64,000 bases of DNA from an uncultured Chloroflexia bacterium (GTDB lineage: Bacteria; Chloroflexota; Limnocylindria; Limnocylindrales; CSP1-4), in assembly GCA_963734535.1 (NCBI GenBank), contig CAVTHS010000007.1:64001-128000 (forward strand). Direction: 5' to 3'. A model generated the notes under the pieces. The model worked only from the letters and a program-made list of their open reading frames with translations. It did no database searches and was not told the DNA's origin. The first letter of the stretch is position 1. The number at the start of each line of letters is the position of its first letter. A program made the translations under genes and the position numbers. Shown here piece after piece: positions 5,819 through 23,671 of the stretch.

Positions 5819-6159
5819 TTCTCAACCCTCCGGTAGAGGATGGCGGAGCCCCCGGTGCGCGGACATGCTGCGCCGACTGGCCGGAGTGGGCGCATAGGCG
5901 TTCGCCCAGGAAGCCAGCGGAGGTGGGTCAATGCGCATTCACGGTCCTGGAAGGTCCGGACGAGCCGAAGACGGGTCGAACCCCACGTCGCGGCCCCCGG
6001 CCTTGCTCACCGGTTTCGTCACCGCGTCGGCCCGGTCTTCCGCCTCTTCCGCGACGACTGGAATCCGCGCATCCCGGAGGCGACCGATGAGCACCCAGGA
6101 CAACCGCGCCTCCGCTGCAGGCAGTCAACGTTCCACGAGGAAAGAGGAGGGACCAGGGA

Positions 6160-9100
6160 ATGGGTCATTCGCGATTCGGCCGCCCGCGGAGGGCGCTCCG
6201 CAGGCTGGGGTCCCTGCTCGCGGCCGGCATGCTGGCTGGCTCGCAGCTCCTCGTGCCGGTGACGCAGGCCGCCGCGATCCCGACCGCCGCCCCGGCTGCG
6301 GCAACGGCTCCGGCAGCGCCCACGACGCCCGATCCTTCACCTGCGCGTGGAGAGCGCCCGCCAGTGGATCCCGTCCGGCCTCAACAAGGGCGACGCGATC
6401 CCGAAGTACCACTGGCTCGTGGTCCAGGACGACACCGGCGACCCGACGCACTACGGCACGCAAGCCTGGGCGCCGCCGACGATCACCAAGAACTCGAACT
6501 ACGCCTGGACGCCGCAGAGTCCCGGGCGGCGATCCGGCGTACCCGGCCAACTGCCAGTGGCCCGCGATCCACTCGGCCAAGGGCGGCACGAGCGCCGAGG
6601 TCGTCGCCCAGGGCGACGAGACCACGCTCAACGAGACGACCGGCATCGACACGACGAGCTGGCCGGCCAACGATCACAACCCGAACCGCAGCTACATGAT
6701 CTCGGTCATGGCCGACGGCTATGACGTGCCGGGCTGCACCGTCAGCTCCGACCGTCACCTGCCACGTCGACGGCTTCAAGATCGACGGCGCCTGGTTCAG
6801 CCTGCCCCGGTCGACAACGAACGGCACTCGGTGACCGTGGACATGCAGCCCTACCCGCTGCCGTTGACCACCGTGCGCATGCAGGTCTGGAACGACCTGC
6901 AGACGAACGGCGCCTACGACACCGGCGAGCCCGTCCTGCCGGGCTTCGAAGGCCACATCGACGACGTGCTCGCGCCGGTCACGACCGACTGGTACGGCAA
7001 CCCGATCTGCACCACCTACCAGCACGACGGCACCGGCCTGATGCTGTTTGGCACCGATGGCAAGCCGCTCATCCAGACCGGTCGGCGGCCACTGCCTGAG
7101 CGACGCCAACGGCGTGATCACGATCCCCTACCTCGGCCCCGACCGCTACGCGTCGACCGTCACCCCGCCGAACGGCCAGACCTGGTACCAGACCAGCACG
7201 CTCGAAGGCTGGCACGACTGGGACATCTGGTCGATCGAGGGCTGGAACGGCTACGACCCCGAGTTCGTCCAGGGCGCCGAGCCGTTCCCGTTCGCCGAGT
7301 TCGGCTTCGTCCAGACTCCAGACCGGCGCCAGCGCGACCGCCTGCTGCAACTACGCCTCGCCCGCGGCGACCGGCTCGATCAAGGGCACCGTGGTCGGCA
7401 TCGGCGAGTACGCGCCGCACGTCGGCGGGCTGACGCTTGGCGGCGGCCAGGGCAAGCACATCATCGAGAACATCAAGCAGCCGCTGATCTCGCTGATCGA
7501 CACCGGCCGCGACGACAACACGGTCTACGTGGGCCGCGGCAACGCCGACGGCACGTTCCAGATCACCAACATCCCCGACGGCGACTACGTCCTGACGTTC
7601 TGGGATGAGGACCAGGCGTACCTGCTCACCCAGGCGAACGTCAGCATCGTCAACGGCCAGGCGCTCGACATGGGCGTGCTCGACGTGGCCGCCTGGCACA
7701 GCCAGGTCTACGGCAAGGTCTGCAACGACACCAACCGCAACGGCAAGTGCGATCCGGGCGAGCCCGGCATCCCGGGCCTGCTCCTGAACCTGCTCGGCCG
7801 CGACAACTCCGTCGCAGTTCTACGGCGACAACACGGCCACCACCGACAGCAACGGCAACTACAGCTTCCCGCGCACCTACCCGCTCGGCCAGTGGGTGGT
7901 GACCCAGGGCTACTGGGAGCAGTTCTACACGGTCGGCGTCACCTACCAGACGGAGAACCAGCCGACCGAGACGACGGTCATGGCCAACGGCGGCTTCGTG
8001 GACGTCAGCTCCTACAACCTGATCGGGCACCAGACCCGCATGGACTGGGCGGTCCACACGTACGAGACCCCGGCGAACGCGAGCCTCGGCCCGACGAACG
8101 GCGGCATCGTGGGCGAGGTCGTGGCCACGACGACGCGCAACGAGCTCGACGCCCGCTTCCAGGCGATCGAGTCCTACGAGCCCGGCCTGCCCGGCGCCAC
8201 CGTGCACCTGTATGCGCCGGTCAAGTGCGTCCCGACCGACGCCGACGACGATCCCGGCCGGCACGAACTGCACGCAGGAGACGACGGCCTTCGGGTCGAC
8301 CTACTACCTGACCGACGCCGCCGACGGATCGATCAAGCGGCTGTCCGACGGCCCGGATAAGGTCAGCGGCAACCCGATCGACCTGTACGACGCCCTACAC
8401 CAGCGAGACCTGGCTGCGGCCGACCGACTGCGTCGCGCGCGGCGCCGATGGCACCCCGGTCGTCGAGCAGGTGCTGCCGCCCTCGACCGGCGGGCACGAC
8501 TGCCTCGAGGCGCCGCTCATGTCGAGCCAGGTGGGCGACAACAGCGTCGGCGACTTCATGCAGGTCAACGGCAACTACGGCTTCACCGCCATCGACCACG
8601 ACCCGACCACGGGCGCCGCTGATCGCCGAAGAGACGATCCCGCCGGGCGACTACCTGGTGCAGGTCGATGCGCCGGCCGATGCCAACGGCAGGCCGGCCT
8701 ACGAGGTGGTCGAAGGAAGAGGACATCAACATCTTCTCGGGCGACTCGTTCGTCGCCCCCGGCGAGACGCCGCTCAACCCGCCGCTGCCCAACCGCACGC
8801 CCGCCGGCGACGGTGGCTCCGGCGATCCCGCCCTTCCCGTGCGCGGGCCCGCTGCACACGGTCAACGTCGTCAACGACTGGTCGCTGGCGAACTTCAGCG
8901 CGCTGAATCCCGCGACCACGCAGGGCGTCTACAACCCGGACATGGTCGACGGCGGCGGCAGCCCGTACGAGGGCCATGAAGATGCCGCTGTGCGACACCC
9001 GGCTGGTGACCGTGCGCAACGGCCGCTCGGCCACGCCCAACTTCCACTTCAAGACCTTCAGCGGCTTCGACGCCGCGGGCAATGCGCTCCCGGCCGGCGC

Positions 9101-12100
9101 CGGCGTCCCGCTGCCGGGCCGCATCTTCGGCATCGCGGTCGACGACCTGAACCTGTCGATCAACCCGAAGGAGCTGTTCTACGGCGAGAAGTACGGCATC
9201 CCCAACCTGCCGATCGGCATCTACGACTTCTCGAACCGGCTGGTCAAGACCATCCAGACCGACCCGCAGGGCGCAGTACGAGGTCATCCTGCCCTCGACT
9301 TCCAGCTACAACTGCCCGCTGCCGGCCGGTCCGTGCCCGGGCATCTACCGCTTCCTGGCGAACGATCCCGGCCAGCCCGGGCATCTGAACCCGGGCTACA
9401 ACCCGGCCTACCGCACGATCGGCGGCTTCTTCGAGGTGTGGCCGGGCGTCAGCCTGCCCTCCGACCTGGCGCCGACGCCGGTCGCGTTCGGGATCGAGAA
9501 CCCGGCACGCAGCAGACGCATCCGGCGGCCTGCCTGCTGAACGATCCCGCGCAGCCGACGGCGCCCAAGGTGCCCGAGCTGTTCGCCATCAACAAGCCGT
9601 TCGTGCGCAACACGCGACACGGGCGCGGCGCGCAGCATCACCCTCAACGGCCAGTACTTCGGCGCCGCGCCGGGACGGTCACGCGTGACCAGCGTCGACG
9701 GCAGCCACGACACTGACCATCGCACTCGTGGAGCGACACGCCAGATCACGTTCACGGTGCCCCGACACGGTCCGGGAGCAGTCCCGGCCGGCCCGCACCA
9801 GCTGAAGATCACGGGCGGCCAACGGCCAGACCACCGTCAACGGCCTGACCTTCCACGTGCTGGGCGGCACGGCTCGAGCGCCTACAACCCGACCGTCTAC
9901 GAAGTCGGGCCCGGCCGACAGGACCTACGATCCAACTGCGGCCAACCGCAACACGCGGCGGCTACGAGCACGCCATCCAGGACGCGCTGGATGCCGCGGC
10001 GGCCAGCTCGACAGGCCCTGGTCGTCGTCTATCCGGGCCCGACCGACACCGTTCAACCCGTTCGGCTCGTACTTCGAGAACCTCGATCATCCACTCGCCG
10101 GTCAAGCTGCAGGGCGTGGGCCCGGGCGGCATCTACGCCGACGGCACGTACGTGCCCGGCACCGTGCTCGACGGCCTCGGCTACGGGACCGACGGCGCGC
10201 GCGAGACCGGCTGGCAGGCCACGCTGGCCTGCCAGTCGGGACGATCATCGGCCCGAACAACGCGCCCGCTCGATCCCGACGACGGTCGCGCCGCCCGAGG
10301 GCGAGGTCATCCTGGCCGTCGCCACCAGCACGACCCAGTATGGCGTCGTCCTACAAGGCCGCGATCGACGGCCTGCTGATCCAGAACGGCGACGTGATGG
10401 ACTTCGTGCCGAACGTCAACACCCTGGGCAACGGCGCGCAGGTCGGCGGCGGCAACAACACGCCGACCAACCCGAACCAGGGCGGCGGCATCGTGGCCTT
10501 CGCCTCGACGCGATACCTGCAGATCACCAACAACATCATCAAGAGCAACGCCGGCGCCTACGCCGGCGCCATCCGCCTGGGCACGCCGCTGGTGGGCGAC
10601 AACCACCTGGACGGCGCCCACATCGCCAACAACCGCATCCTCAACAACGGCGGCACCAACCTGGCCGGCGCGGTCGGGCATCTTCAACGGCGCCTACGGC
10701 TACGAGATCAACAACAACGACCTGTGCGGCAACTTCTCGTCCGAGTATGGCGGCGGCATCAGCCACTTCGGCCTGACCGGCAACCTGCGACTGCGAACGG
10801 CAACCGCTCGACGAGCGGCACGCCGTCCGAGCATCCACGACAACCGCATCTACTTCAACGGCTCGTACGACGAAGGCGGCGGCGTGATCATCGCCGGCGA
10901 ACCGCCGGCGACCTCGACCAGCCTTCGGCGCCGGCGCCGGCCCGGTCAACATCTACAACAACCTGATCGAGGCCAACCTGGCCAACGACGACGGCGGCGG
11001 CCTGCGCTTCCTGACGGCGGGCAACTTCCCGTACAACGTCTACAACAACATGATCGTGAACAACATCTCCACGCACGAAGGCGGCGGCGTGGCGATCGAC
11101 AACGCGCCCAACGTGCGCTTCTACAACAACACGGTCATGAAGAACCTGACCACGGCCACCGCGGCGACCAGCAACGGCCAGCCCGCGCCGGCCGGCCTGT
11201 CGACCGCGCGTCGAACAACGACTTCCTGCAGGCGACCCTGCCCGCCGGCTCGCCGCTCTACAGCAACCCGCTGATGTTCAACAACATCTTCTGGGACAAC
11301 CGGGCGGGCACCTGGGACGGCGCGCAACGTCGTCGGCATCGGCGGCCTGGTCTGGTCGAGCGGCGTGCAGGTCCCGACCCGACCCCGATCAATCACTGGG
11401 ACATGGGCGTGCCGGGCACGAGCTTCCAGCTCGCGCCGACCAACTCGATCCTGCAGACGCGAGACGACCAACCACAACGATGTCGTCGCCAGCCCGACCA
11501 ACAAGGTGCGATCAGGACCCGCTGATCAACGCGCCCTACGACACGTCGGTCACGGGCCTGCCCTGGCGCGGCAACCCGAACTTCGTGGCCAACGTGATCG
11601 TGGCGCAGGATGTGCCGGTGACGATCATGGGCGACTACCACCTGAGTGGCACGGGCTCGCCGGCCTTCAACGCTGGGCGCGGCTTCCAAGGCCGCGCCGC
11701 CTACCAGCAGCCGCCGCGACCATCGCCGCCCCGACGTTCGACATCGACAACCAGGCACGCCCGGCGCTCGGCGGCTTCGACAGCGGCGCGGACGAGTTCC
11801 CCGGCGCGCAGGCCGATCTCTCGATCACCAAGACCGATGGGCAGACCAGCGTCACGCCGGGCGCGGTCGTCAACTACACCATCGTCGTCGCCAATGCCGG
11901 CCCGAGCGCCGTCGCCCTGGCGCCCGTGACCGACAACGTTCCCGGCCGCGCTCACCGGCGTGACCTGGACCTGTACGGCCCCGGCCGGCTCGAGCTGCGG
12001 CGCAGCCAGCGGCACCGGCAACATCAACACGACGGTGACGCTGCCGGCCGGCGGCAGCGCCACCTTCACCGCTGAACGGCACGGTCGCCGCGAACGCGAG

Positions 12101-12784
12101 CGGCACGCTGGCCAACACGGCCACGGTGGCGGCACCGGCCGGCACGACCGACACGAACACGGCCAACAACAGCGCGACCGACACCGACCGATCGTCGCTC
12201 CCGCTGCCGGCGCTCGGCGGTGCTCGACAACTTCAACCGGGCCAACGCGAACACGCTCGGCGCAACTGGAGCCAGGGACGCTCCTCGGCTGGCGCGGCCG
12301 ATCCGGGTCAACAGCAACCAGGCCTTCGCACACGTTGCGTGCCGGCGGCCAGGCGATCTGGAACGTCCCGACCGGCGCGGCTTCGGCGCCCGGCAGGGCG
12401 CGGCCTTCACCTTCGCCAACACCGACCGGCTGAACGACGCCGGCCCTGATCCTGAAGGCGAGCGGCGGCTACGGCCACGACTCCGGCGAACTTCATCCGG
12501 GTGCGCTACAACGCGGGCCAGGTGACGGTCGCGACGACGACCAACAGCGGACTCACGCCTGACGACGCGGCGGCACGTTCGCGGCGACCTTCGCGTCCGG
12601 CGACACGTTGAGCGCGGTGGCGAACGCCGACGGGTCGGTGTCAGACGTCGCGGCAGAACGACCACCTATCGTCGGCCGGCGTCGACGCGGCACCGACGTT
12701 CTGGACCGGGCACGCGGCCGGATCGGCATGCAGCTCCCGACCGGCGCACGGGTCGACAACTTCAGCGGCGGGACGGTGCCCTGA
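6160..12784 (+). CDS. Giant (~2,200 aa) secreted multidomain protein: SdrD-B-like, IPT/TIG-like, parallel beta-helix and DUF11 domains; many frameshifts
   Basis: GAGGAGG RBS and signal peptide; stitched fragments [38 protein letters not shown], Asn/Gly-rich [18 protein letters not shown] / [47 protein letters not shown]; ends ...[11 protein letters not shown] at 12784. Confidence 0.75.
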
Positions 12785-12801
12785 TCGGTGCCGAGCCAAG
12801 C

Positions 12802-12820
12802 GGGGGCCGTCACGGCCCCC
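12802..12820 (+). terminator. GC-rich hairpin after the giant gene (terminator or mRNA stabiliser)
   Basis: gggggccgt-c-acggccccc inverted repeat; no U-tract. Confidence 0.35.
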
Positions 12821-12972
12821 AGGCCGCTCCACCCGAGCCAGCGCAGGCGCCGGGAGCGTCGACGCGGCGCTCCCCGGGCAGGCCTGACCGCAGTGAGACC
12901 AGGCAGCGCGGCGCCAGGCGCGACCGGCCACCAGCCCGGCAGTCGTCGGCAGGCCCGCTTCAGGAGAACACG

Positions 12973-14404
12973 ATGAGCAAACCACCCTTCTCCCGGAAGG
13001 TCTCCCGGCGGCAGTTCCTCAAGGTCGGCGGCACTGCGCTCGCCGCCGCGGCGGCGCGAGCCTCGGCTCCGCACTGGGCCGGCAAGGTGCTGCCAGCCGT
13101 CCTCGGCCGCCGAGGCCGCCGGCGCCGACGTCGCCCGCGCCGACCATCTACAAGCACCTGATCGGGTCCGACGGCTGGATCTCCATCCCATGGGGACCAT
13201 CACGAACGAGCTGGGAGCTGTCGTCGCCCCCGATGCGCTCGCGCCCGCGGGGCGAACCACCTACGTGTTCGGCTTCCGCGACGTGACGGTGCTGGACGCC
13301 CCCGGCCCCACGCCGGGCACGACGACCGAGCCCCGGATCCTGGCGCAGAAGGGCCACGTCCAGCACTCGGCGCCGCTGATCTTCTTCGACGAGAACGACG
13401 CCATCCAGATCACGCTGAGCAACCTGGGCCTGGCCGTGCGGCCCGACCTGACCGACCCGCACACCATCCACTGGCACGGCTTCCGCAACGCCCTGCCGAT
13501 CTTCGACGGCGTGCCGGAGATGTCGATCTCGGTGGCGCCCGGGAGCGACTTCCCGTACTACTATCACCCGACCGATCCCGGCACCTACATGTACCACTGC
13601 CACAACGAGGACGTCGAGCACGTGCAGATGGGCATGGACGGCATCGTCTTCGTGCGGCCGGCGCAGAACAAGACCGGCAACGGCGCCGGGGCTCCGGTCG
13701 CCCGCTACAACGGCGGGGCCGCCGGCGCCGCTGGGCTACGTCTACAACGACGGCGTGGCGCTCGGCGACCCGCGCTCGACGGCCTACGACCGCGAGTTCG
13801 CCATCTTCCTCAACGAGTTCTGGGCGCAGTCGCACTACGACGACGCCCACATCCAGGTGAGCGACTGGAGCGACTTCCACGCCGACTTCTACCTGATGAA
13901 CGGCCGCTCCTATCCCGACACGCTCGCGCCCAACGGCGGCGGCACCGACCTGACGCACCGGCGACCTGATCGCGCCGGCCGGCCGCCCGGACCTGGAGTC
14001 CCAGCCGATCTCGTCGCTGATCCAGTGCAACGCCGGCGACCGGGTGCTGCTGCGCTTCGTCAACCTGGGCTACACCCAGCCGGCCATGAAGCTGACCGGC
14101 ATCCCCATGCACGTGGTCGGCAAGGATGCCACGCCGCTGCGCGGCATCGGCACCGGCGGGCTGCGCAACGGCGCCGACACGAGCTACATCACCGACACGA
14201 TCTACCTGGGCGCGGGCGAGAGCTACGACGCGATCTTCACCGCGCCGCCCAAGACCGGCGCCGGCTACGACACCTACCTGCTCTTCAACAACGCGCTCGG
14301 CGCGCTCAACACAGCCGGGCGGCGCCGGGCTGGGCGGGCAGATGACCGAAGTGCGCGTTTACGCCGCCGGCACCCTGCCGGCCCAGACGGCGCCCAACAC
14401 GTGA
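12973..14404 (+). CDS. Tat-exported two-domain multicopper oxidase subunit A (type-1 Cu site in domain 1); frameshifted
   Basis: SRRQFLK twin-arginine signal; HTIHWHG (~13460) and YHCHNEDVEHVQMGM (~13592); domain 2 lacks the His motifs. Confidence 0.85.
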
Positions 14405-14417
14405 TCCATGAAAGGAG

Positions 14418-15779
14418 ATGACGGACATGCGCACCACTTCGTACGCAAGATGGGTTCGACTATCGGTCGGCGCTGGCGCGTGCTGCGCCATCCTGGTCGC
14501 TCGAGCTGCCGGCAGCGCGCCGCCAGTGGCCGCCGCGGCGACGGCCGTCTTCGGGCATCCTGTGCACCACCAGCAGCAGCCCGAACGCGAGCTTCTCGCT
14601 GACGGCGAGCGCCGACTACATCAGCATGCCGGACGGCAACTCGATCTACACCTGGAGCTACGGCCCCAGCGGCGGCGCTTTCCAGTTCCCCGGGCCGGTG
14701 CTGTGCGTCAACCAGGGCGACACGGTGACGGTGGTGCTGAACAACACGCCTGCCGGAAGCCACCTCGATCATGTTCCTGGGCATCGACAACGTCCAGGCC
14801 AACGGCGCCCCGGCCCAGCCGGAGTTCAGCGGCAGCGACGCCTGACCTCGCTGACCAACAGCGCCGCGGCGACCGGCGGCAGCGTCACCTACAGCTTCGT
14901 GGCCAGCAACCCGGGCACCTACCTGTACGAGAGCGGCACGGACGTCGGCAAGCAGGTGCAGATGGGCCTGTACGGCGCGCTGGTCGTGCGCCCGGCCGGC
15001 CACCCCGATTGGGCCTACAGCAACGACGGCCAGGCCTTCGGCCAGTTCGACCCGACCACCGAGTTCGTCATGCTGCTCTCCGAGATCGACCCGAACCTGC
15101 ACTCGGCGGTCGAGCTGGGGCAGCCCTACGACGTGACCACCCTGCACCCGCGCTACTGGCTGATCAACGGGCGCTCCTTCCCGGACACCATCGCGCCGAA
15201 CAACGCCGCCTGGCTGCCCAACCAGCCCTACAGCTCGCTGTTCCACATCAAGGTGACTGACCCGCCGGATCCGACCCACGGCGGCGTCCATGCACCCGGC
15301 GCTGATCCGCTACCTGGACGCCGGCTCGCGCAACCACCCGTTCCACCCGCACGGGCAGAACGGGCGGGTGATCGCGCGCGATGCCACCCCGCTGATCGAC
15401 GCGGCCGGCAACGACCTCTCCTACGAGACGTTCGCCTTCACCATCGGCTCGGGCCAGACCTGGGACCAGACCTACCACTACGACAACCAGGAGCACTTCG
15501 ACGCGACCACCAACCCGATCCCGGTGACGATGCCGCAACTGCAGAACCTGACCTTCAAGGACAACGCGACCTACTACAGCGGCAGCCCCTACCTGGGGCA
15601 GAAGGGCCAGCTGCCGGTCGGCACCACGTCGTACAACGAGTGCGGCGAGTACTACATGGTCATGCACAGCCACGCGCTGTACGAGGTGGCCAACTACGAC
15701 ACCGGCTTCGGCGGCATGTTGACCCTGGAACGGATCGACCCACTGACGCCGGCGCCCGGCACCACGTGCACGCCAGTAG
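14418..15779 (+). CDS. Two-domain multicopper oxidase-like subunit B (His motifs only in domain 2); frameshifted, ends approximate
   Basis: FPGPVLCVNQGDTV; GTYLYESGTDVGKQVQMGLYG; HPFHPHG (~15335); VMHSHALYE...GGM (~15665). Confidence 0.8.
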
Positions 15780-15788
15780 GAGACGACG

Positions 15789-18700
15789 ATGAGAACGCCC
15801 ATCCGACTACCGGGCCGCACACGGCTCCTCTCGCCGGTCATGGCGGCGGCGCTGGTCGCCGCCTGCTCGGCCGCTGGCGCAGCCGCGCCGGTGGCCGCTA
15901 GCCCGGCCCGCCTGGCTGCGGCGCCGGCACCGGCGGCCGCCGCGCCGCGGTCCCGTCACCGGGACGACCTGCTCGCCGGCCTGCGACCTCTACGCCACGA
16001 CCGGCACCGCTCACGCCTGCCGGACGGCGACCACGGCGCCGATCTGGGGCTACTCGCTGCCAGCACGCCCGGGTCGGCCAGCCTTGCCCGGCCCGCTCCT
16101 GATTGTCAACCAGGGCGATCCGGTTGCGATCACCCTGCACAACGTCGACCTGCCGAGCGCGACGTCGTTGATGATCGCGGGCCAGCCGGGCGCGCCGGAC
16201 ACGACCGGCGTCACCGCCGGCAACAGCAAGACCTACACCTTCGCGGCGGGGGTCCTGCAAGCCCGGCACCTACCTCTACGAAGCCGGGCTGACCGCCGAC
16301 GGGCCGCGCCAGGTGGCAATGGGCCTCTACGGCGCCCTGATCGTGCGCCCGACCGGCGCACCGCTCCAGGCGTACGCCGATCCCGAACACGACCTTCGCC
16401 GACGAGGCGGTGCTGGTGCTCAGCGAGGTCGACCCGGCCTTCAACGCCGCCCCGGCCACGCTTCGACATGACCGCGTTCGCCCCGAAGTACTGGCTGATC
16501 AACGGCAAGGGCTACCCCAACACCGATTCGATCGCCACGGCGGCGGGCAACACGGTCCTGCTGCGCTACGTCAACGCCGGCCTCGCAGCACCACTCGATG
16601 GGCCTGCTTGGCCTGCACCAGACGATCATCGCGACCGATGGCACAGCCGGCCACCAACCAGTCCAGGGTGGTGGCCCAGACCGTCCCGACCGGCGGCACG
16701 CTGGATACCATCGTCACCATGCCGGCCAGCTGCCCCGACGGGCACGCAGTACGCGGTGTTCGAGGCCGCGATGCACATGGACAACAACGGCGCCGCGACC
16801 GGCGGCGTCGATCAACTTCGGCGGCATGCTGACGTTCCTGACGGTCTGCGCGGGGACCACGCTCCACCGGCCGGCCCGGTCACCAGCGCGGTCAGCCTCG
16901 TCGCCCAACCCGAGCAACGGCTCGGCGGCAGTCGCCCTCACGCGCCGACGCACCTCGACCGGCGCACCTGACCGCGGCCGAGTACTTCGTCGACACGCTC
17001 GGCACGAGCGGCAGCTGGCTGCGCCGATCACCGGCTCGCTGACCAGCGTCAGCGTCACGATCCCAGTGTCCGGCGCGACGCGCTCGCCGTGCGCGGATCT
17101 GACGACGCTTTCCAGCGGCAACCACACCTTCTACGTCCATGGCCAGGACGCGAATGGCTGGGGCGCCGTTGCCTCGGCCGTGCTCAACCTGGACAAGGCC
17201 GGCCCGGCGATCAGCAACATGAGCCTGACGCCGAGCGCCGACAACGGCACCGTCGATGTCGTGCTGCAGGCGACTGCGAGCGACGTCGCGACGCGGCAAC
17301 CAGAACGTGACGGCGGCCGAGTACATTCATCGACGGCGGCACGCCAGCACGTGCGACGCTTCACGGTGGCGCCCGGCGACGACCGTGAGCCTGAACGCCA
17401 CGATCCTCGCCGCAACGGTGAACGGCCCTGAGCCGAGGGCAACCACACGGTTGCCGTCCGCGCTCAGGATGCCCTGGGCAACTGGGGTGCGCTTTGGCAC
17501 CACCACCCTGAAGGTTGACAAGACCGGGCCGGGAACCAGCGCCGTCACCGCGACCCCCAACCCGAACAACGGCACGCTCGGCGTGCAGATCGGCACGCGG
17601 CGGCGCGTTCTACGTGCGCATCGACGCGACGGTCAGCCGACCCGGTCTCACCGGTCTCGGTGGCGTCAACTCGAACATCGCCGCGGCTGAGTACTTCTTC
17701 GATTGCCCTGGCGGGACGTGTCCCGCCAACGGCACCGGCGGGGCGATGATCCCCACCGACGGCTCGTACAACAGCCCCAGCGAGGCGGCCTACGCGGCCG
17801 TCGACATGATCCACATCGCCTCCCTGTCCGTCGGCACCCACACGATCTACGTCCACGGCAAGGACGCGGCCGGCAACTGGGGCGCGACCAGCGACCATCT
17901 CGTTCCTGATCGACAAGACCCCGCCGACCTTCACGGGCATCTCGCTCGCGCCGAACCCGACCCTGGGCGCGCCACGCGTCACGCTGACGGTGAACGGAGC
18001 GGTCGACACGGGCGGCGCCGGCGTTGGTGGCGGCGAGTACTGGATCAATCCACCGACGACCACGACCCCGGCTGCGGGCAGCGGCACGCAATTCAGCGGC
18101 CTGACGGCGAGCATCCCGGTGGGCTCGCTCGCGACCGGCACGTACACCGTCAGCGCCCGGATCCGCGACGCTGCCGGCAACTGGAGCACCGGCACGGGCG
18201 GCATCCGTACCGCGACGCTTACCGTCCTTCCCGACACGATCTTCTCGAACGGCTTCGACACCGGCTTCGCCCCGTGGGGCTGGACCAGCCGGTCGACGAC
18301 CACGACGGCACGCCTCAATGCCACGGCGGCGGCCGCCCTGGTCGGCGCTCGGGGCCTCCAGGCGCAGGGCAACAGCGGCAACTACGTCCAGTTCAACTTC
18401 GGGACCGTCGCCCAACCGACGACGGCGACCTACGACGCGCGCTTCTACTTCAACCCACACAACAACGCGTCGACCGGGCAGGACATCCTGGCGGCCGCGA
18501 CGTCGAACGCCTTCACCACCCAGCTGTTCCACGTGCGCTACCGGCGCAGCGGCACCCAGCCGCAGGTGCAGGTACAGGTGGGCGCCACCGCCAACGCTGC
18601 GTGGGTGAACATCACCAACAACGCCAGCAACCGCATCGAGGTCGTCTGGCAGTCCGGCGCGAGCCTCCAGCTGACCGTCAACGGCACGCTGTCCCAGACC

Positions 18701-18829
18701 CTGACCGCCGGCACGGGCTCCGTGTCCGCCGTTCGCCTGGGCTCTGTGACTTCCGGCGGCAGCAACACCCTCATGTACTTCGACGCCTTCGCCTCCAAGC
18801 GATCGGTGTCGCCGCTCATCGGGCCGTAG
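15789..18829 (+). CDS. Multicopper oxidase-like subunit C (no canonical Cu motifs) fused to Ig-like repeats and a C-terminal beta-sandwich-like domain; frameshifted
   Basis: PGPLLIVNQGDPV, GTYLYEAG...QVAMGLYG, YWLINGKGYP, GGMLT; then AEYF / DAAGNW repeats; ends YFDAFASKRSVSPLIGP*. Confidence 0.75.
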
Positions 18830-18848
18830 TCCCAAGCACCTCGCACGC

Positions 18849-18884
18849 GGGGCCGGCCGGCCACCCGACACGCCGGCCGGCCCC
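18849..18884 (+). terminator. 13-bp GC hairpin after the MCO genes
   Basis: ggggccggccggc-N10-gccggccggcccc. Confidence 0.45.
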
Positions 18885-18941
18885 GCCACCCCGTTCACTC
18901 AACGCAATCGCCTTCCACGGCACCAACCGGAGGAGCTTTCC

Positions 18942-19430
18942 ATGGCCGAGTCGGCCGTCCTTCCAGCACTGCGGGGGCGCTTCGGAAGCGTCCCGGGCGC
19001 GATCGTCCCCTTCGCCGGCGCGCTTGCGCTGCTCGCCGCGGTGATCGCCCTGGGCCTCACCCTGCGCGCTCCCGCCGCACCCGCCGGGACACCGATCCCG
19101 CCGAATCCCGCCGTCGAGACCAAGTGGGGGGTCAGGGTCAGCCAGGTGGCGGTAACCGCGGACGGTGGTCTCGTCGACTTCCGCTTCATCGTCCTCGACC
19201 CGGACAAGGCGTCCGAGATGCTCTCGAACGTCGACAACCTGCCCGTGCTCCGCGTGGACGGCTCGGGCGTCGTCGTCAACTCCACCGCACAGATGGGCGG
19301 CCACCCGACCCTCCGGCCCGGTCAGACCTACTTCCTCCTCTACCGCGACGCGGGTGGCGCGATCAAGAGCGGCACCTCCCTCAGCGTCCTGTTCGGCGAT
19401 CTCGCGATCGACCACGTGATCGCCCGCTGA
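18942..19430 (+). CDS. Membrane-anchored conserved hypothetical protein (paralog of 1-312)
   Basis: GGAGGAG RBS, N-terminal TM helix, GGLVDFRF motif. Confidence 0.8.
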   Translation: MAESAVLPALRGRFGSVPGAIVPFAGALALLAAVIALGLTLRAPAAPAGTPIPPNPAVETKWGVRVSQVAVTADGGLVDFRFIVLDPDKASEMLSNVDNLPVLRVDGSGVVVNSTAQMGGHPTLRPGQTYFLLYRDAGGAIKSGTSLSVLFGDLAIDHVIAR

Positions 19431-19442
19431 CGGTGTGATCCG

Positions 19443-21371
19443 ATGACGCAGCGGCCAGCCGCGAGCTCGATCCGGGTGCGCCGCGCCCTGGCGGCGCTCG
19501 TGGCGCTGCCGATCTTCCTGTGGCTCGCGGCCGGTACCGCATCCGCGCACGCGATCCTCGAGTCCGTCGACCCGGCCGATGGGTCGACCCTCTCGAGCGC
19601 CCCCCCGATCGTGCGGCTGGTGTTCTCCGAGCCCGTGGACCCGTCCCTCGCGACGATCGGGCTGCTGGACGCGGCCGGCCGCGCGGTCTCCGGGGTCGTG
19701 GTCGGCGCCGATCCGTCCGACCCGGCTGCGCTCGACGTCTCGCTGCCGGCCCTCTCGCCGAGCGCCTACAGGCTCGCCTGGCGGGTGGTCGACGAGCAGG
19801 ACTTCCATGTCACGACAGGAACGGTCGTCTTCGGCATCGGGGCGCCCGCGCCCGCGCCGGCCGCCGAGCAGGTCGCGGGCGCGAACCTCCCCGAGGTGGG
19901 CCTGCGCTGGCTGGCCCTCGCCCTGCTCGCGGCCGCCTGCGGCGGCCTCCTGCTGCTGGTCGTCGTCCTCCGGCTGCCAGCCCGCTTCGACGGACCGGCG
20001 CTCGCGCTCCGGCGGCGGCTCGTGCGGGTCGCGACCGGCGCGAGCGGCGCGGCGATCCTCGCCAACGGCAGCCTGTTCCTCCTCCAGGCGAACGGGGCGG
20101 GCGGAACGGGCATCGACCCGGCAGCACTCCTGGGGACCACGTTCGGGACGGCCTGGGCGATCGAGGAGGCCGTGCTCACGGTCCTCTGCGTCGTCCTGGT
20201 CCGTGCCATGCGCCGCAGTCCGGCCGGCGCGCCGAGCCTCCGCGTCGCCCTCGTCGGCGGCCTGCTGTTCGGTCTCGCCGGAGTCCAGGCCCTGACCGGC
20301 CACGTCACCACGGGCCCGGCCCAGGAGACGCCGATCCGCTGGATCGCGCTGACCGTCCACCTCGTCGCCATGCTGGCGTGGGTCGGCGGGCTCGCCGCCC
20401 TGGCGATCGGCGTCGGGCCGCTGCTCCGGGGACCACGCGCCAACGTCGGGCTCGCCCGGGCAGTGCTGGGACGATTCTGGCTGATTGCGGCGCCCGCCCT
20501 CGCCGCCCTCGCCGTCACGGGGCTGTACCTCGGGGGGCAGCTCGTCGCATCGGCGGACGCGCTCCTCCTCACGGCCTATGGCCAGGCGCTCCTCGTCAAG
20601 ACCGGCCTCGCGCTCGTTGCCGTGATGCTCGGTGCGCTCAATGCGGCGGCGCTGCATCCGGGCCTCTTCGCCCGGGTGCGCCGGGTCGCACCCTTCGCGC
20701 TCCGACTCGTCCCATCGCGGGCCCGGCTTCGCGCCGTCGTCGCCGTGGAGGCCAGCGCCGCGCTCGCGGTCGTCCTGGCGGCGGCGTTCATGAGCGCCAG
20801 CCCACCCGCCCGCGGGCCCCGGTTCGATCCGGTGCCGGCTGTCGTCACCCAGGCGCCGGTCGCAGCCCGGGCCGACGATCTCCTGGTGACCCTGGCGATC
20901 CGGCCCGATCGCCCCGGACCGAACTTCGCCGACATCGGCGTGCTCGACACCCGCCGGCCGGCCCCGGCGCCGATCGACACCGTCAGCGTACGCCTGATTC
21001 CACCGACCGGCACCGGCGTGACCGCGCTCCAGGCGCGCGCAACCGCGCCCGGCCGCTACGAGATCGACAACTTGCCCATCGACCAGGGCGGGGCGTGGCG
21101 CCTGGCGATCGAGATCGGCCGAGCAGGACTGCCGCCGGCCTCGGTCGTGCTTCCCTGGGCCGTCGCGCCGGCGCTCGCCGCGCCCCATCCGGTGCTCGTC
21201 TCCGACGCGCCGCTCGCGCCACTCGCGACCCCGCTGGCGATCGCGCTGGCGGCCCTCTTCGGTGCCCTTGCCATCGCCGTCGTCGCCCGGCGCCGAGGGG
21301 TCCGCCCGGGGCGGACCGTCGCCGCACTCACCGCCAGCCCGCCGGCAGCCCCTTCAGGAAGTGAGATATGA
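19443..21371 (+). CDS. Copper resistance CopC/CopD fusion protein (YcnJ-like)
   Basis: ASA|HAILESVDPADG mature N-terminal His; DFHVTTG; multi-TM CopD region with HLVAMLAWVGGL and YGQALLVK. Confidence 0.88.
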   Translation: MTQRPAASSIRVRRALAALVALPIFLWLAAGTASAHAILESVDPADGSTLSSAPPIVRLVFSEPVDPSLATIGLLDAAGRAVSGVVVGADPSDPAALDVSLPALSPSAYRLAWRVVDEQDFHVTTGTVVFGIGAPAPAPAAEQVAGANLPEVGLRWLALALLAAACGGLLLLVVVLRLPARFDGPALALRRRLVRVATGASGAAILANGSLFLLQANGAGGTGIDPAALLGTTFGTAWAIEEAVLTVLCVVLVRAMRRSPAGAPSLRVALVGGLLFGLAGVQALTGHVTTGPAQETPIRWIALTVHLVAMLAWVGGLAALAIGVGPLLRGPRANVGLARAVLGRFWLIAAPALAALAVTGLYLGGQLVASADALLLTAYGQALLVKTGLALVAVMLGALNAAALHPGLFARVRRVAPFALRLVPSRARLRAVVAVEASAALAVVLAAAFMSASPPARGPRFDPVPAVVTQAPVAARADDLLVTLAIRPDRPGPNFADIGVLDTRRPAPAPIDTVSVRLIPPTGTGVTALQARATAPGRYEIDNLPIDQGGAWRLAIEIGRAGLPPASVVLPWAVAPALAAPHPVLVSDAPLAPLATPLAIALAALFGALAIAVVARRRGVRPGRTVAALTASPPAAPSGSEI

Positions 21372-23671
21372 ACGCCCCGCGTCGCCACAGTCGCCTGCTT
21401 CTCGTGCTCGCCATCTCCGCGCTGCTCAACGGGGCCGTCGGCGCGCCCACGATCGCCGCAGCACCGACTGCCGCGATCGATGCGGCGCTCGCGGCAACGC
21501 TGCGGACCGCCGCTCCCGGCGCGCTGATCCCGGTCATCGTGCGGCTGCGCGACCAGGTCGACATCCGCGCGATCGGCGGCGCCGGCCGTTCCGCCCGCCT
21601 CGCGGCCGTGGTCACCGCCCTCCAGCAGCGGGCCGCAGCGACCCAGGCCGGGCTCCTGGCTCTCCTGGCCGCGCGGCGGGTCGGGGGGCTTGCGGCCTCG
21701 GTGACGCCCCTGTGGATCATCAACGGCGTCGCCGTGCACCTGCGCCCCTTGGCCATCGCGGAGATTGCCGCCCGGCCAGAGGTCGCTTCGATCGCCCTCG
21801 ACCAGGTGGTCACCGCGCCGGCTGCCCCGAGCGCAGCCTCCTCGACCCCGGTCGAACCGAACGTGAGCCTGATCAACGCGCCGTCCGTGTGGAGCCTCGG
21901 GTTCGGCGGCCAGGGCGTGGTCATCGCCAGCATGGACACGGGTGTCGACGCGACCCATCCGGATCTCGCCGCCGAGTACCGCGGCGGGACCGACAGCTGG
22001 TACGACCCGTACGGCCAGCACCCGACCACCCCGATTGACTTCTCGGGCCACGGGACGTGGACGATGGGGCTGATGGTGGGGGGCACCGGCGGGGGAAGCG
22101 CCATCGGCGTCGCCCCCGGCGCGAAGTGGATCGCCGCCAAGATCTTCAACGACGCCGGCAGCGGGACGACCAGCGCGATCCACCTCGCCTACCAGTGGCT
22201 TCTCGACCCGGACCACAACCCGGCGACAGCTGATGCCCCGAACATCGTCAACAACTCGTGGACGCTCTCCAACCCGGGATGCTCGCTCGAGTTCGAGCCC
22301 GACCTCGCGGCGCTCGTGGCCGCCGACATCACGCCGGTGTTCGCGGCCGGCAACTTCGGCCCGACCGCCCCGTCTGATGCGAGCCCGGCCAACAACCCCG
22401 ATGCATTCGCGGTCGGGGCGACGGACAACTCCGACGCGATCGCCAGCTTCAGCAGCCGTGGCCCCACGAGCTGCGGGCGATCGGCGCCGGCCACCTTCCC
22501 GGACGTCGTCGCCCCTGGCGTGGGCGTGCTGACCACGGACCTCTTCGGCCTGTACACCAATGTGGCCGGGACCTCGTTCTCGGCGCCGGCCGTCTCGGGC
22601 GCCATGGCCCTCCTCCTGAGCGCCTTCCCCGCCGCCACGGTGGCCCAGCTCCGCGCCGCGCTCGCCGGCACGGCGGTCGACCTCGGCCCGGCCGGGCCGG
22701 ACGCTACCTTCGGCTCCGGCAGGATCGACGTCCTCGCCGCCTACAACGCCCTCGCGGGCGGGCCCTCGCCCTCCCCGAGCCCGTCGCCGAGCCCGAGCCC
22801 GAGTCGCCGAGCCCCGCCGCCCGTCGCCGAGCCCCAGCCCCTCGCCGTCGCCGAGCCCCGAGCCCGTCGCCGTCGCCGAGCCCCAGCCCGTCGCCGTCGC
22901 CGAGCCCCAGCCCGTCGCCGTCGCCGAGCCCCAGCCCGTCGCCGTCGCCGAGCCCCAGCCCCTCGCCGAGCCCGCCCGAGCCCCAGCCCGTCCCGTCGCC
23001 GAGCCCCAGCCCGCGACCCGTCGCCGAGCCCCAGCCCCTCGCCGAGCCCGAGCCCGTCGCCGACCCCAGCGCCCGCGGTGACCTCGCTCTCGCCGAGCTC
23101 GGGCCCGACCGCGGGCGGCACGACGGTCACGATCAGCGGCAGCGGCTTCAGCACCGCGGCCGGGGCGACCGCGGTCTCGTTCGGCGCGAGCCCCGCCGCG
23201 AGCGTCAGCTGCGGGAGCGTGACGAGCTGCCTCGCCGTCAGCCCGGCCGGCGTCGCCGGGGCGGTCGACGTCCGGGTGACGGTCGGCGGGCAGACGAGCC
23301 CGGTCACCCCGGGCGACCGGTTCAGCTATGTCGCGGCCGCGACCACCGTTCCCGTCGCGGTTCCCGCCCTCACGAGCGGGTACGGCTACTGGGTCACCGT
23401 CACGAGCGCAACGAGCGGGCCGATCAGCGCCGCCTGGACGACCCCCACGTCGGTTCAGGGCACCCTCGCGGTCTACGCCGGCAACCCGTTCGCCGGCCTG
23501 TCGGATCCCGCGCGGCGCAGCCCGCCATCGGGCGCGCTCGCGACGACGTCAGGCAGGCGGCGCTCCTTCAGCGTCACGACGGCCTCCCGGCCGGCCGGCG
23601 TCTACACCCTCTACTTCTACGCCGGCGGCAGCCTGAAGGCGAGCAGCGGCACGGTCACCTACTGGAGGTAG
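21368..23671 (+). CDS. Secreted S8 serine peptidase with Pro/Ser linker and IPT/TIG domain
   Basis: Signal peptide; MDTG / HGT / GTSFSAP triad; PAVTSLSPSSGPTAGGTTVTISGSGF IPT signature. Confidence 0.88.
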   Translation: MNAPRRHSRLLLVLAISALLNGAVGAPTIAAAPTAAIDAALAATLRTAAPGALIPVIVRLRDQVDIRAIGGAGRSARLAAVVTALQQRAAATQAGLLALLAARRVGGLAASVTPLWIINGVAVHLRPLAIAEIAARPEVASIALDQVVTAPAAPSAASSTPVEPNVSLINAPSVWSLGFGGQGVVIASMDTGVDATHPDLAAEYRGGTDSWYDPYGQHPTTPIDFSGHGTWTMGLMVGGTGGGSAIGVAPGAKWIAAKIFNDAGSGTTSAIHLAYQWLLDPDHNPATADAPNIVNNSWTLSNPGCSLEFEPDLAALVAADITPVFAAGNFGPTAPSDASPANNPDAFAVGATDNSDAIASFSSRGPTSCGRSAPATFPDVVAPGVGVLTTDLFGLYTNVAGTSFSAPAVSGAMALLLSAFPAATVAQLRAALAGTAVDLGPAGPDATFGSGRIDVLAAYNALAGGPSPSPSPSPSPSPSRRAPPPVAEPQPLAVAEPRARRRRRAPARRRRRAPARRRRRAPARRRRRAPAPRRARPSPSPSRRRAPARDPSPSPSPSPSPSPSPTPAPAVTSLSPSSGPTAGGTTVTISGSGFSTAAGATAVSFGASPAASVSCGSVTSCLAVSPAGVAGAVDVRVTVGGQTSPVTPGDRFSYVAAATTVPVAVPALTSGYGYWVTVTSATSGPISAAWTTPTSVQGTLAVYAGNPFAGLSDPARRSPPSGALATTSGRRRSFSVTTASRPAGVYTLYFYAGGSLKASSGTVTYWR
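22763..23071 (+). repeat. (Pro-Ser)n coding low-complexity repeat with internal indels
   Basis: Repeated ccgtcgccgagccccagc units. Confidence 0.88.

Follow-up and report, generated by a model that had tools for sequence, protein, structure and literature searches.

We describe three adjacent genes, A, B and C, whose products are two-domain multicopper oxidase (2dMCO) paralogues that divide among themselves the copper ligands of an oxidase. They lie on the forward strand of a 64,000-nucleotide stretch of DNA (hereafter the window) from an uncultured Chloroflexia bacterium. The window covers positions 64,001 to 128,000 of contig C7 (CAVTHS010000007.1) of the source genome, which comprises about 3.2 Mb in 14 contigs with about 72% G+C. 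Subunit A (12973..14404) starts with a twin-arginine signal (13003-13023) and carries in its domain 1 a full type-1 copper site together with four histidines of a trinuclear cluster, within the motifs HTIHWHG (13460-13480) and HCH..H..M.M (13595-13636); its domain 2 is ligand-less, the equivalent places reading PAMKLTG (14080-14100) and LLFNN (14278-14292). Subunit B (14418..15779) has a signal peptide without a clear twin-arginine motif and a ligand-less domain 1 (TSIMF, 14762-14776; YESG, 14926-14937), and its domain 2 contains an HxH pair, in HPFHPHG (15335-15355), and an HSH (within 15662-15679). Subunit C (15789..18829) consists of a ligand-less two-domain multicopper oxidase core (about 15789-16950), then immunoglobulin (Ig)-like repeats and a C-terminal beta-sandwich domain. 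No HxH or HCH was found in C at the places equivalent to the A and B motifs, which read TSLMIAG (16162-16182, for HxH) and YLYEAG (16271-16288, for HCH) and, in domain 2, HHSMGLLG (16589-16612) and AMHMDNNG (16768-16791).

We propose that these proteins probably assemble, one copy of each, into a heterotrimeric oxidase that descends from a type-C 2dMCO and has only one trinuclear cluster. An earlier note on this DNA had arrived at a similar interpretation, which is supported, though not proven, by the conservation of the ligand pattern and by a structural model of the A-B pair. Every motif that the note had quoted for the three subunits was recovered at its position on the forward strand; the motifs stand in different reading frames because the window copies of A, B and C are broken, a point to which we return below.

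The copper ligands are partitioned in the same way in homologous loci

A scan of one genome per species returned 403 stretches encoding relatives of A, and the best 80 were taken as survey loci. By their labels, 45 belong to Actinomycetota, 34 are of Chloroflexota type and one is from Sphingomonadaceae. The gene order A-B-C is kept throughout: B follows A in all 80 loci and C is present in 73, the seven loci without C ending within or shortly after B. In A, the residues H159, H162, H164, H204, C205, H206, H212, M215 and M217 are invariant in all 80 homologues, so that every A domain 1 holds a type-1 site (His, Cys, His, Met) and four cluster histidines. Of 77 aligned B homologues, all have H319 and H321 in domain 2, and all but one, whose row is gapped, have H426 and H428 as well (76 of 77). 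Between these last two histidines stands serine in 59 rows, asparagine in 16 and threonine in one, and never cysteine. Moreover, the column of B that corresponds to the type-1 histidine is not conserved (tyrosine in 46 homologues, histidine in 18, phenylalanine in 10, valine in two and threonine in one), and at the type-1 ligand columns both B and C carry residues of the Ser/Thr/Gly type. The survey alignments contain no conserved HxH in domain 1 of B, in domain 2 of A or in either domain of C, and no invariant histidine or cysteine was seen among 54 C homologues; the mean column identity of the C core is 48%.

The claim that no chain holds all the cluster ligands is thus borne out: A has the domain-1 set only, B the domain-2 set only and C none, and the eight cluster histidines are complete only when A and B are taken together. 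As read from the sequences, this partition would argue against a functional homotrimer. A tree of 162 sequences resolved the three families as separate clades (support 1.0 for A, 0.997 for B and 1.0 for C); the triplication is therefore older than the spread of the operon. A more distant case is locus L101, on a metagenome contig of 58.6% GC. There, A is fused to BIG, the giant secreted protein gene that precedes A in the window, and the fusion is followed by B, C and D, the last being a small membrane protein gene found downstream of C. The B protein of L101 has its HxH and HSH in domain 2 only, and its C protein is a ligand-less core of 338 residues devoid of Ig repeats; together, the cores of the three L101 proteins come to about 1170 residues. 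The partition and the gene order therefore hold in a third, compositionally different lineage. Homologous clusters, including one with another gene architecture, accordingly keep the distribution of ligands that the earlier note had described for the window.

A, B and C share the fold of type-C 2dMCOs

A and B match Pfam Cu-oxidase (multicopper oxidase) domains, and their closest solved relatives by sequence are the type-C 2dMCOs 3G5W and 2ZWN, followed by copper nitrite reductases. The domain-1 motifs of A align with those of 3G5W with identical spacing. For B, a profile search aligned the domain-2 HxH with the domain-2 HxH of 3G5W, and a single-sequence search of the PDB with domain 2 of B alone gave nothing relevant. 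The profiles of the three families are themselves closely related (hhalign, E 7.7e-41 for A against B and 1e-61 for B against C). In domain 1, HTIHWHG of A falls over TSIMFPG of B and TSLAVSQ of C, and the YHCH block of A over YESG of B and YEAG of C; in domain 2, FHPHG of B falls over MRLTG of A and MSVLG of C. Since ligand-bearing and ligand-less motifs occupy the same columns, the pattern is not due to chance. The C core was modelled with high confidence (predicted local distance difference test, pLDDT, 93; predicted template modelling score, pTM, 0.90), and the top Foldseek matches of the model were again 2ZWN (E 5e-21, template modelling score 0.74) and 3G5W (E 1.9e-20, root-mean-square deviation 3.0 over 307 columns). 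A, B and C are 2dMCO paralogues. Membership of the copper-resistance oxidase family CopA/PcoA was rejected, as A and B scored 35.2 and 38.1 bits against an NCBIfam copper_res_A cut-off of 478.95; none of the NCBIfam families is specific to A, B, C, D or BIG.

In three runs of a model of the A+B complex, the interaction score ipSAE (interaction prediction score from aligned errors) was 0.87, 0.88 and 0.86, and the best of three controls reached 0.02. Such a score is attained by 116 of 157 solved complexes and by two of 215 mismatched pairs, a calibration that is rough in the present case because self-made alignments were used. The runs agreed in at least 96% of contacts, and the pLDDT of the partner was at least 90. 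The confident interface comprises, on the A side, residues 114, 118, 120-121 and 163-170, which include or flank the histidine motifs (in model numbering the A ligands are H115, H118, H120, H160, C161, H162 and H168). On the B side it comprises residues 266-275 and 372-382, the B ligands being H270, H272, H377 and H379. The model thus sets domain 1 of A against domain 2 of B, as the earlier note had anticipated. That it picks the orientation joining both histidine sets supports binding of the two predicted partners without showing it.

The window copy is broken and its relatives are intact

As written in the window, A, B and C cannot yield full-length proteins. We placed the frameshifts by a protein-guided, frameshift-aware alignment against the unbroken orthologues from a genome of the same genus (G004), the corresponding DNA alignment (about 80% identity) being too noisy for the placement of indels. 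At a minimum, 22 frame changes are needed (A, six; B, four; first 430 codons of C, 12), or about one per 180 bases over some 3.9 kb. Of these, 18 are single extra bases, and one more extra base lies just ahead of the B stop codon. BIG is also broken, its pieces matching the G004 orthologue in frames 2, 3, 2, 2 and 1. The frameshifts are limited to the operon at 5931-18829: downstream of C, D and the genes for a CopC-CopD fusion (CopCD) and an S8 protease are open.

In G004 the trio is unbroken and encodes proteins of 477 (A), 463 (B) and 1054 (C) residues. The same genome has a second, paralogous trio with the same ligand partition. A paralogous operon, BIG', A', B' and C', is likewise found in the source genome directly upstream of the window (locus L018, C7:54259-63000). 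Its BIG', A' and B' are 67-87% identical to their G004 counterparts and its C' 59%, each matched in a single frame. Since intact proteins show the same partition, it is not a product of the frameshifts, and correction of the reading frames does not restore full motifs in any chain. Two features at the start of the window adjoin this paralogous operon: an S8 protease gene (326-1735) follows it, and after that gene a protein encoded at 2062-3645 matches only the Ig-repeat and C-terminal part of C'.

One reading of the damage, which bears on the window copy only, is that the genes at 5.9-18.9 kb are decaying into pseudogenes, the operon being redundant beside its intact paralogue. The density of frameshifts in A, B and C, the further ones in BIG, and the single frames of both the adjoining paralogous operon and the D, CopCD and S8 genes all agree with decay. 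So does the position of the extra bases, which lie outside homopolymer runs, in an operon that has fewer such runs than its flanks; homopolymer runs were on this ground rejected as the cause. However, the preponderance of single-base insertions and the absence of internal in-frame stop codons along the frameshift-aware alignment are not what decay would lead one to expect, nor is the ordinary identity to G004 (357/473 in A and 329/455 in B, with 252/383 in C). The orthologue in a genome of few contigs (G012) is broken too, at different positions, and a poorly polished stretch of a long-read assembly could likewise show about one error per 180 bases. No sequencing run with the source strain was found, the best public run containing 7% of the sampled words of 12900-18900. 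Short-read contigs of relatives (85-99% identity) lack the single bases of the window at 13726, 14835, 14841, 16809 and 17293; as they come from other strains, they cannot tell sequencing error from mutation. The excess of insertions and the missing stop codons point towards assembly error; the sharp boundaries point towards something local. We hold decay of the window copy to be possible, but less likely than not.

A proposed ABC ring and the alternatives to it

In the scheme that we propose, A, B and C would have descended from one type-C 2dMCO by complementary loss of copper ligands, and a ring with one copy of each subunit, six cupredoxin domains in all, would act as a single catalytic unit. 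The type-1 copper would reside in domain 1 of A, and the four domain-1 histidines of A together with the four domain-2 histidines of B would hold the only trinuclear cluster; if the ring is ABC, the split of the eight histidines indeed leaves room for just one. Substrate would be oxidised at the type-1 copper of A, electrons would reach the cluster by way of the His-Cys-His triad of A, and dioxygen would be reduced there to water. C would close the ring, and its Ig-like repeats, present in most lineages, probably keep the enzyme attached to the cell surface. The larger conserved unit consists of BIG (fused to A in some lineages), A, B, C, D and often CopCD, with D and CopCD as candidates for supplying copper to the inter-subunit cluster. 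As for the substrate, our guess is a metal ion, with Cu(I) first because of the CopCD linkage.

The export signals of 12 of the 80 loci, assessed by visual inspection, bear on how such a cluster could be assembled. A S/T-R-R-x-x-L motif is present in A in all 12, and no RR pair was seen in B in 11 of them. The twin-arginine signal in A but not in B suggests that copper probably enters the cluster outside the cytoplasm, as it would have to do if B crosses the membrane unfolded. Taken as a whole, the fuller picture is one that we favour by a modest measure only. It comprises an obligate heterotrimer that arose by complementary ligand loss, with one type-1 copper and one A/B trinuclear cluster, assembled extracellularly from differently exported subunits and tethered to BIG, as an undescribed surface oxidase system of soil Chloroflexota and Actinomycetota.

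Several points weigh against this proposal. Besides the broken frames of the window copy, the high A+B score may reflect the likeness of these proteins to solved homotrimeric 2dMCOs. C would be placed in the ring by its homology and synteny, and because a ring of three members needs a third subunit. Moreover, the twin-arginine signal that the note had seen in A is confirmed, but an RR pair also occurs in one B protein (L070) and in at least three C proteins of the 12 loci. The role that the note had given to C, that of a structural and anchoring subunit, must also be narrowed, anchoring being lineage-dependent: the C of L101 has no Ig-like repeats.

One alternative concerns the membership of C. 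A and B could form the composite copper centre by themselves, as a pair or as an A2B or AB2 trimer, and C could be a separate surface or adhesin protein that has kept the cupredoxin fold. The modelled contact is indeed between A and B only, C has no conserved ligand, and in most lineages the Ig-like repeats make up most of it. Yet the two-domain core of C is found in every locus long enough to show C, it is well conserved with a confident 2dMCO fold, and one lineage has cut C down to the core alone; in addition, an A2B or AB2 trimer would leave some histidine sets unpaired. We hold an enzyme without C to be unlikely. Another alternative does away with the trinuclear cluster: A would act separately, either carrying electrons on its type-1 copper or as an enzyme of the NirK kind, and B and C would be non-catalytic proteins of cupredoxin fold. 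This would accommodate the absence of the eight histidines from any single chain and the occurrence of NirK proteins among the PDB sequence matches of A and B. It would not account for the four domain-2 histidines of B, which are invariant across two phyla despite the lack in B of a type-1 site or of partner histidines of its own, nor for the retention in A of the full HCH triad and HxH pair, which serve only a trinuclear cluster, and it runs against the A+B model that joins the two histidine sets. Separate action of the three proteins thus appears very improbable.

Relation to known multicopper oxidases

The type-C 2dMCOs, such as the Nitrosomonas europaea blue copper oxidase (3G5W) and the metagenomic mgLAC (2ZWN), have two cupredoxin domains per chain, like A, B and C. 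Their domain 1 bears a type-1 site and the HxxHxH and HCH motifs, spaced as in A, and their domain 2 an HxH that aligns with that of B. Each cluster lies at a subunit interface, where domain 1 of a chain meets domain 2 of its neighbour. A single gene product makes up the whole trimer, which has three type-1 sites and as many clusters, whereas here the ligands are split among three paralogous genes, so that a ring can have at most one type-1 site and one cluster. With 463-1054 residues in G004, A, B and C are longer chains as well, and their genes stand in an operon with a giant beta-helix protein. The SLAC-type (type-B) small laccases of Streptomyces, which are among the weaker PDB sequence matches of B, are likewise two-domain, trimeric, extracytoplasmic actinobacterial multicopper oxidases; unlike A, B and C, they form homotrimers in which every chain has a complete ligand set and the type-1 site belongs to domain 2.

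In ceruloplasmin and hephaestin, six cupredoxin domains form a ring of pseudo-threefold symmetry that has only one trinuclear cluster, located at one of the interfaces. The earlier note had called the window enzyme ceruloplasmin-like. This comparison holds for the single cluster that a six-domain ring would contain; it does not hold further, because each of the eukaryotic proteins is a single polypeptide that has three mononuclear sites, against three polypeptides and one type-1 site in the present case, and the closest relatives are type-C 2dMCOs. A, B and C are not a six-domain single chain, for in intact relatives they are separate genes with their own stop codons and signal peptides, and ceruloplasmin is absent from the PDB sequence and fold matches listed for them. 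The Mnx complex of Bacillus (MnxG with MnxE and MnxF) is a hetero-oligomeric multicopper oxidase encoded by one operon; MnxG holds all the ligands itself, and the accessory subunits MnxE and MnxF are not known to be cupredoxin paralogues. The copABCD and pco operons resemble the present loci in that a multicopper oxidase lies beside CopC and CopD functions (here CopCD, in the flanks of 55 of the 80 loci), and differ in that CopA/PcoA is a single three-domain chain, unlike the split A, B and C.

The division of 2dMCOs into types A, B and C and a route from them to ceruloplasmin have been proposed, and the evolution of multicopper oxidases from two-domain trimers to six-domain chains has so far been argued from sequence and structure alone. 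If the ABC ring is correct, it would be a living example of the step between homotrimeric 2dMCOs and single-cluster six-domain enzymes such as ceruloplasmin, and hence a concrete, testable intermediate architecture. It would also be a clean case of paralogues made mutually dependent by complementary loss, and a natural system in which a trinuclear copper cluster has to form where two different subunits meet, probably outside the cell. Cultured actinomycetes of the genera Micromonospora, Kribbella, Nocardioides, Nonomuraea and Kineosporia carry the operon, which makes experiments feasible; carriers include Micromonospora, Kribbella pratensis and Nocardioides panacihumi (loci L051, L058 and L061). 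The survey also flags a conserved, uncharacterised cell-surface system (BIG, A, B, C, D and CopCD) in soil bacteria. No three-gene or heteromeric 2dMCO was found in the full-text literature, which leaves subscription journals mostly uncovered, so that an earlier description is possible; exact phrases for a heterotrimeric or heteromeric multicopper oxidase or laccase had no match there. The word heterotrimer occurs in PMC11761707, where the passage concerned deals with one gene product with and without its C-terminal domain, not with three genes.

Operon partners and distribution

BIG occupies 5931..12650 on the forward strand, both ends being approximate. As judged by Pfam on intact relatives, it combines SdrD-B-like, carboxypeptidase-regulatory-like and TIG domains with a right-handed beta-helix of weak NosD likeness and DUF11 repeats. 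A BIG homologue lies upstream of A in 78 of the 80 loci. Five of 12 longer A homologues were inspected: three are BIG-A fusions (P0002, P0010 and P0011), of 2251-2311 residues, whose A part has the same domain-1-only ligands, and two look like read-through of adjacent genes; none of the five is an A-B or A-B-C fusion. BIG is likely to be physically tied to the oxidase. The fusion records are labelled Deferrisomatales or Bathyarchaeia, or are unlabelled, and the fusion of L101 lies at L101:8950-15753.

D (18942..19430, forward strand) is intact in the window and has a homologue after C in 67 of the 80 loci. An N-terminal membrane helix precedes a beta-sandwich in which Met-x(1-3)-His is conserved, and neither Pfam nor NCBIfam has a family for the protein. 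Its model (pLDDT 80) had no Foldseek match in the PDB at E <= 0.001, and a wide fold search gave generic beta-sandwich matches only (Z <= 6.0), among which the PCuAC domain 6p17 (Z 5.7) was tied with unrelated folds. D may be a copper-handling partner. It is followed on the same strand by the intact CopC-CopD fusion gene (19443..21371; Pfam CopC 6.2e-17 and CopD 4.1e-11, with NCBIfam matches to CopD and CopC). Next comes the gene for a subtilisin-like S8 protease with a TIG domain (21368..23671, forward strand; Pfam Peptidase_S8 6.9e-47), an occasional neighbour found in 23 of the 80 loci. In the linker of this protease (22750-23100), Pro-Ser repeats turn into an Arg/Ala-rich repeat and back again, which could be a compensated pair of frameshifts within the repeat. 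A histidine kinase gene adjoins the operon in at least two actinobacterial loci (L051:812-2044 and L058:14211-15344) and hints at two-component regulation.

Among 301 genomes drawn evenly from the phylum, 11, the source genome being one of them, had a B-family match at E <= 1e-60, in nine of 171 genera; the system is patchy. The B-family match in a genome of the same family (G322:C2:401507-402658) contains three in-frame TGA codons.

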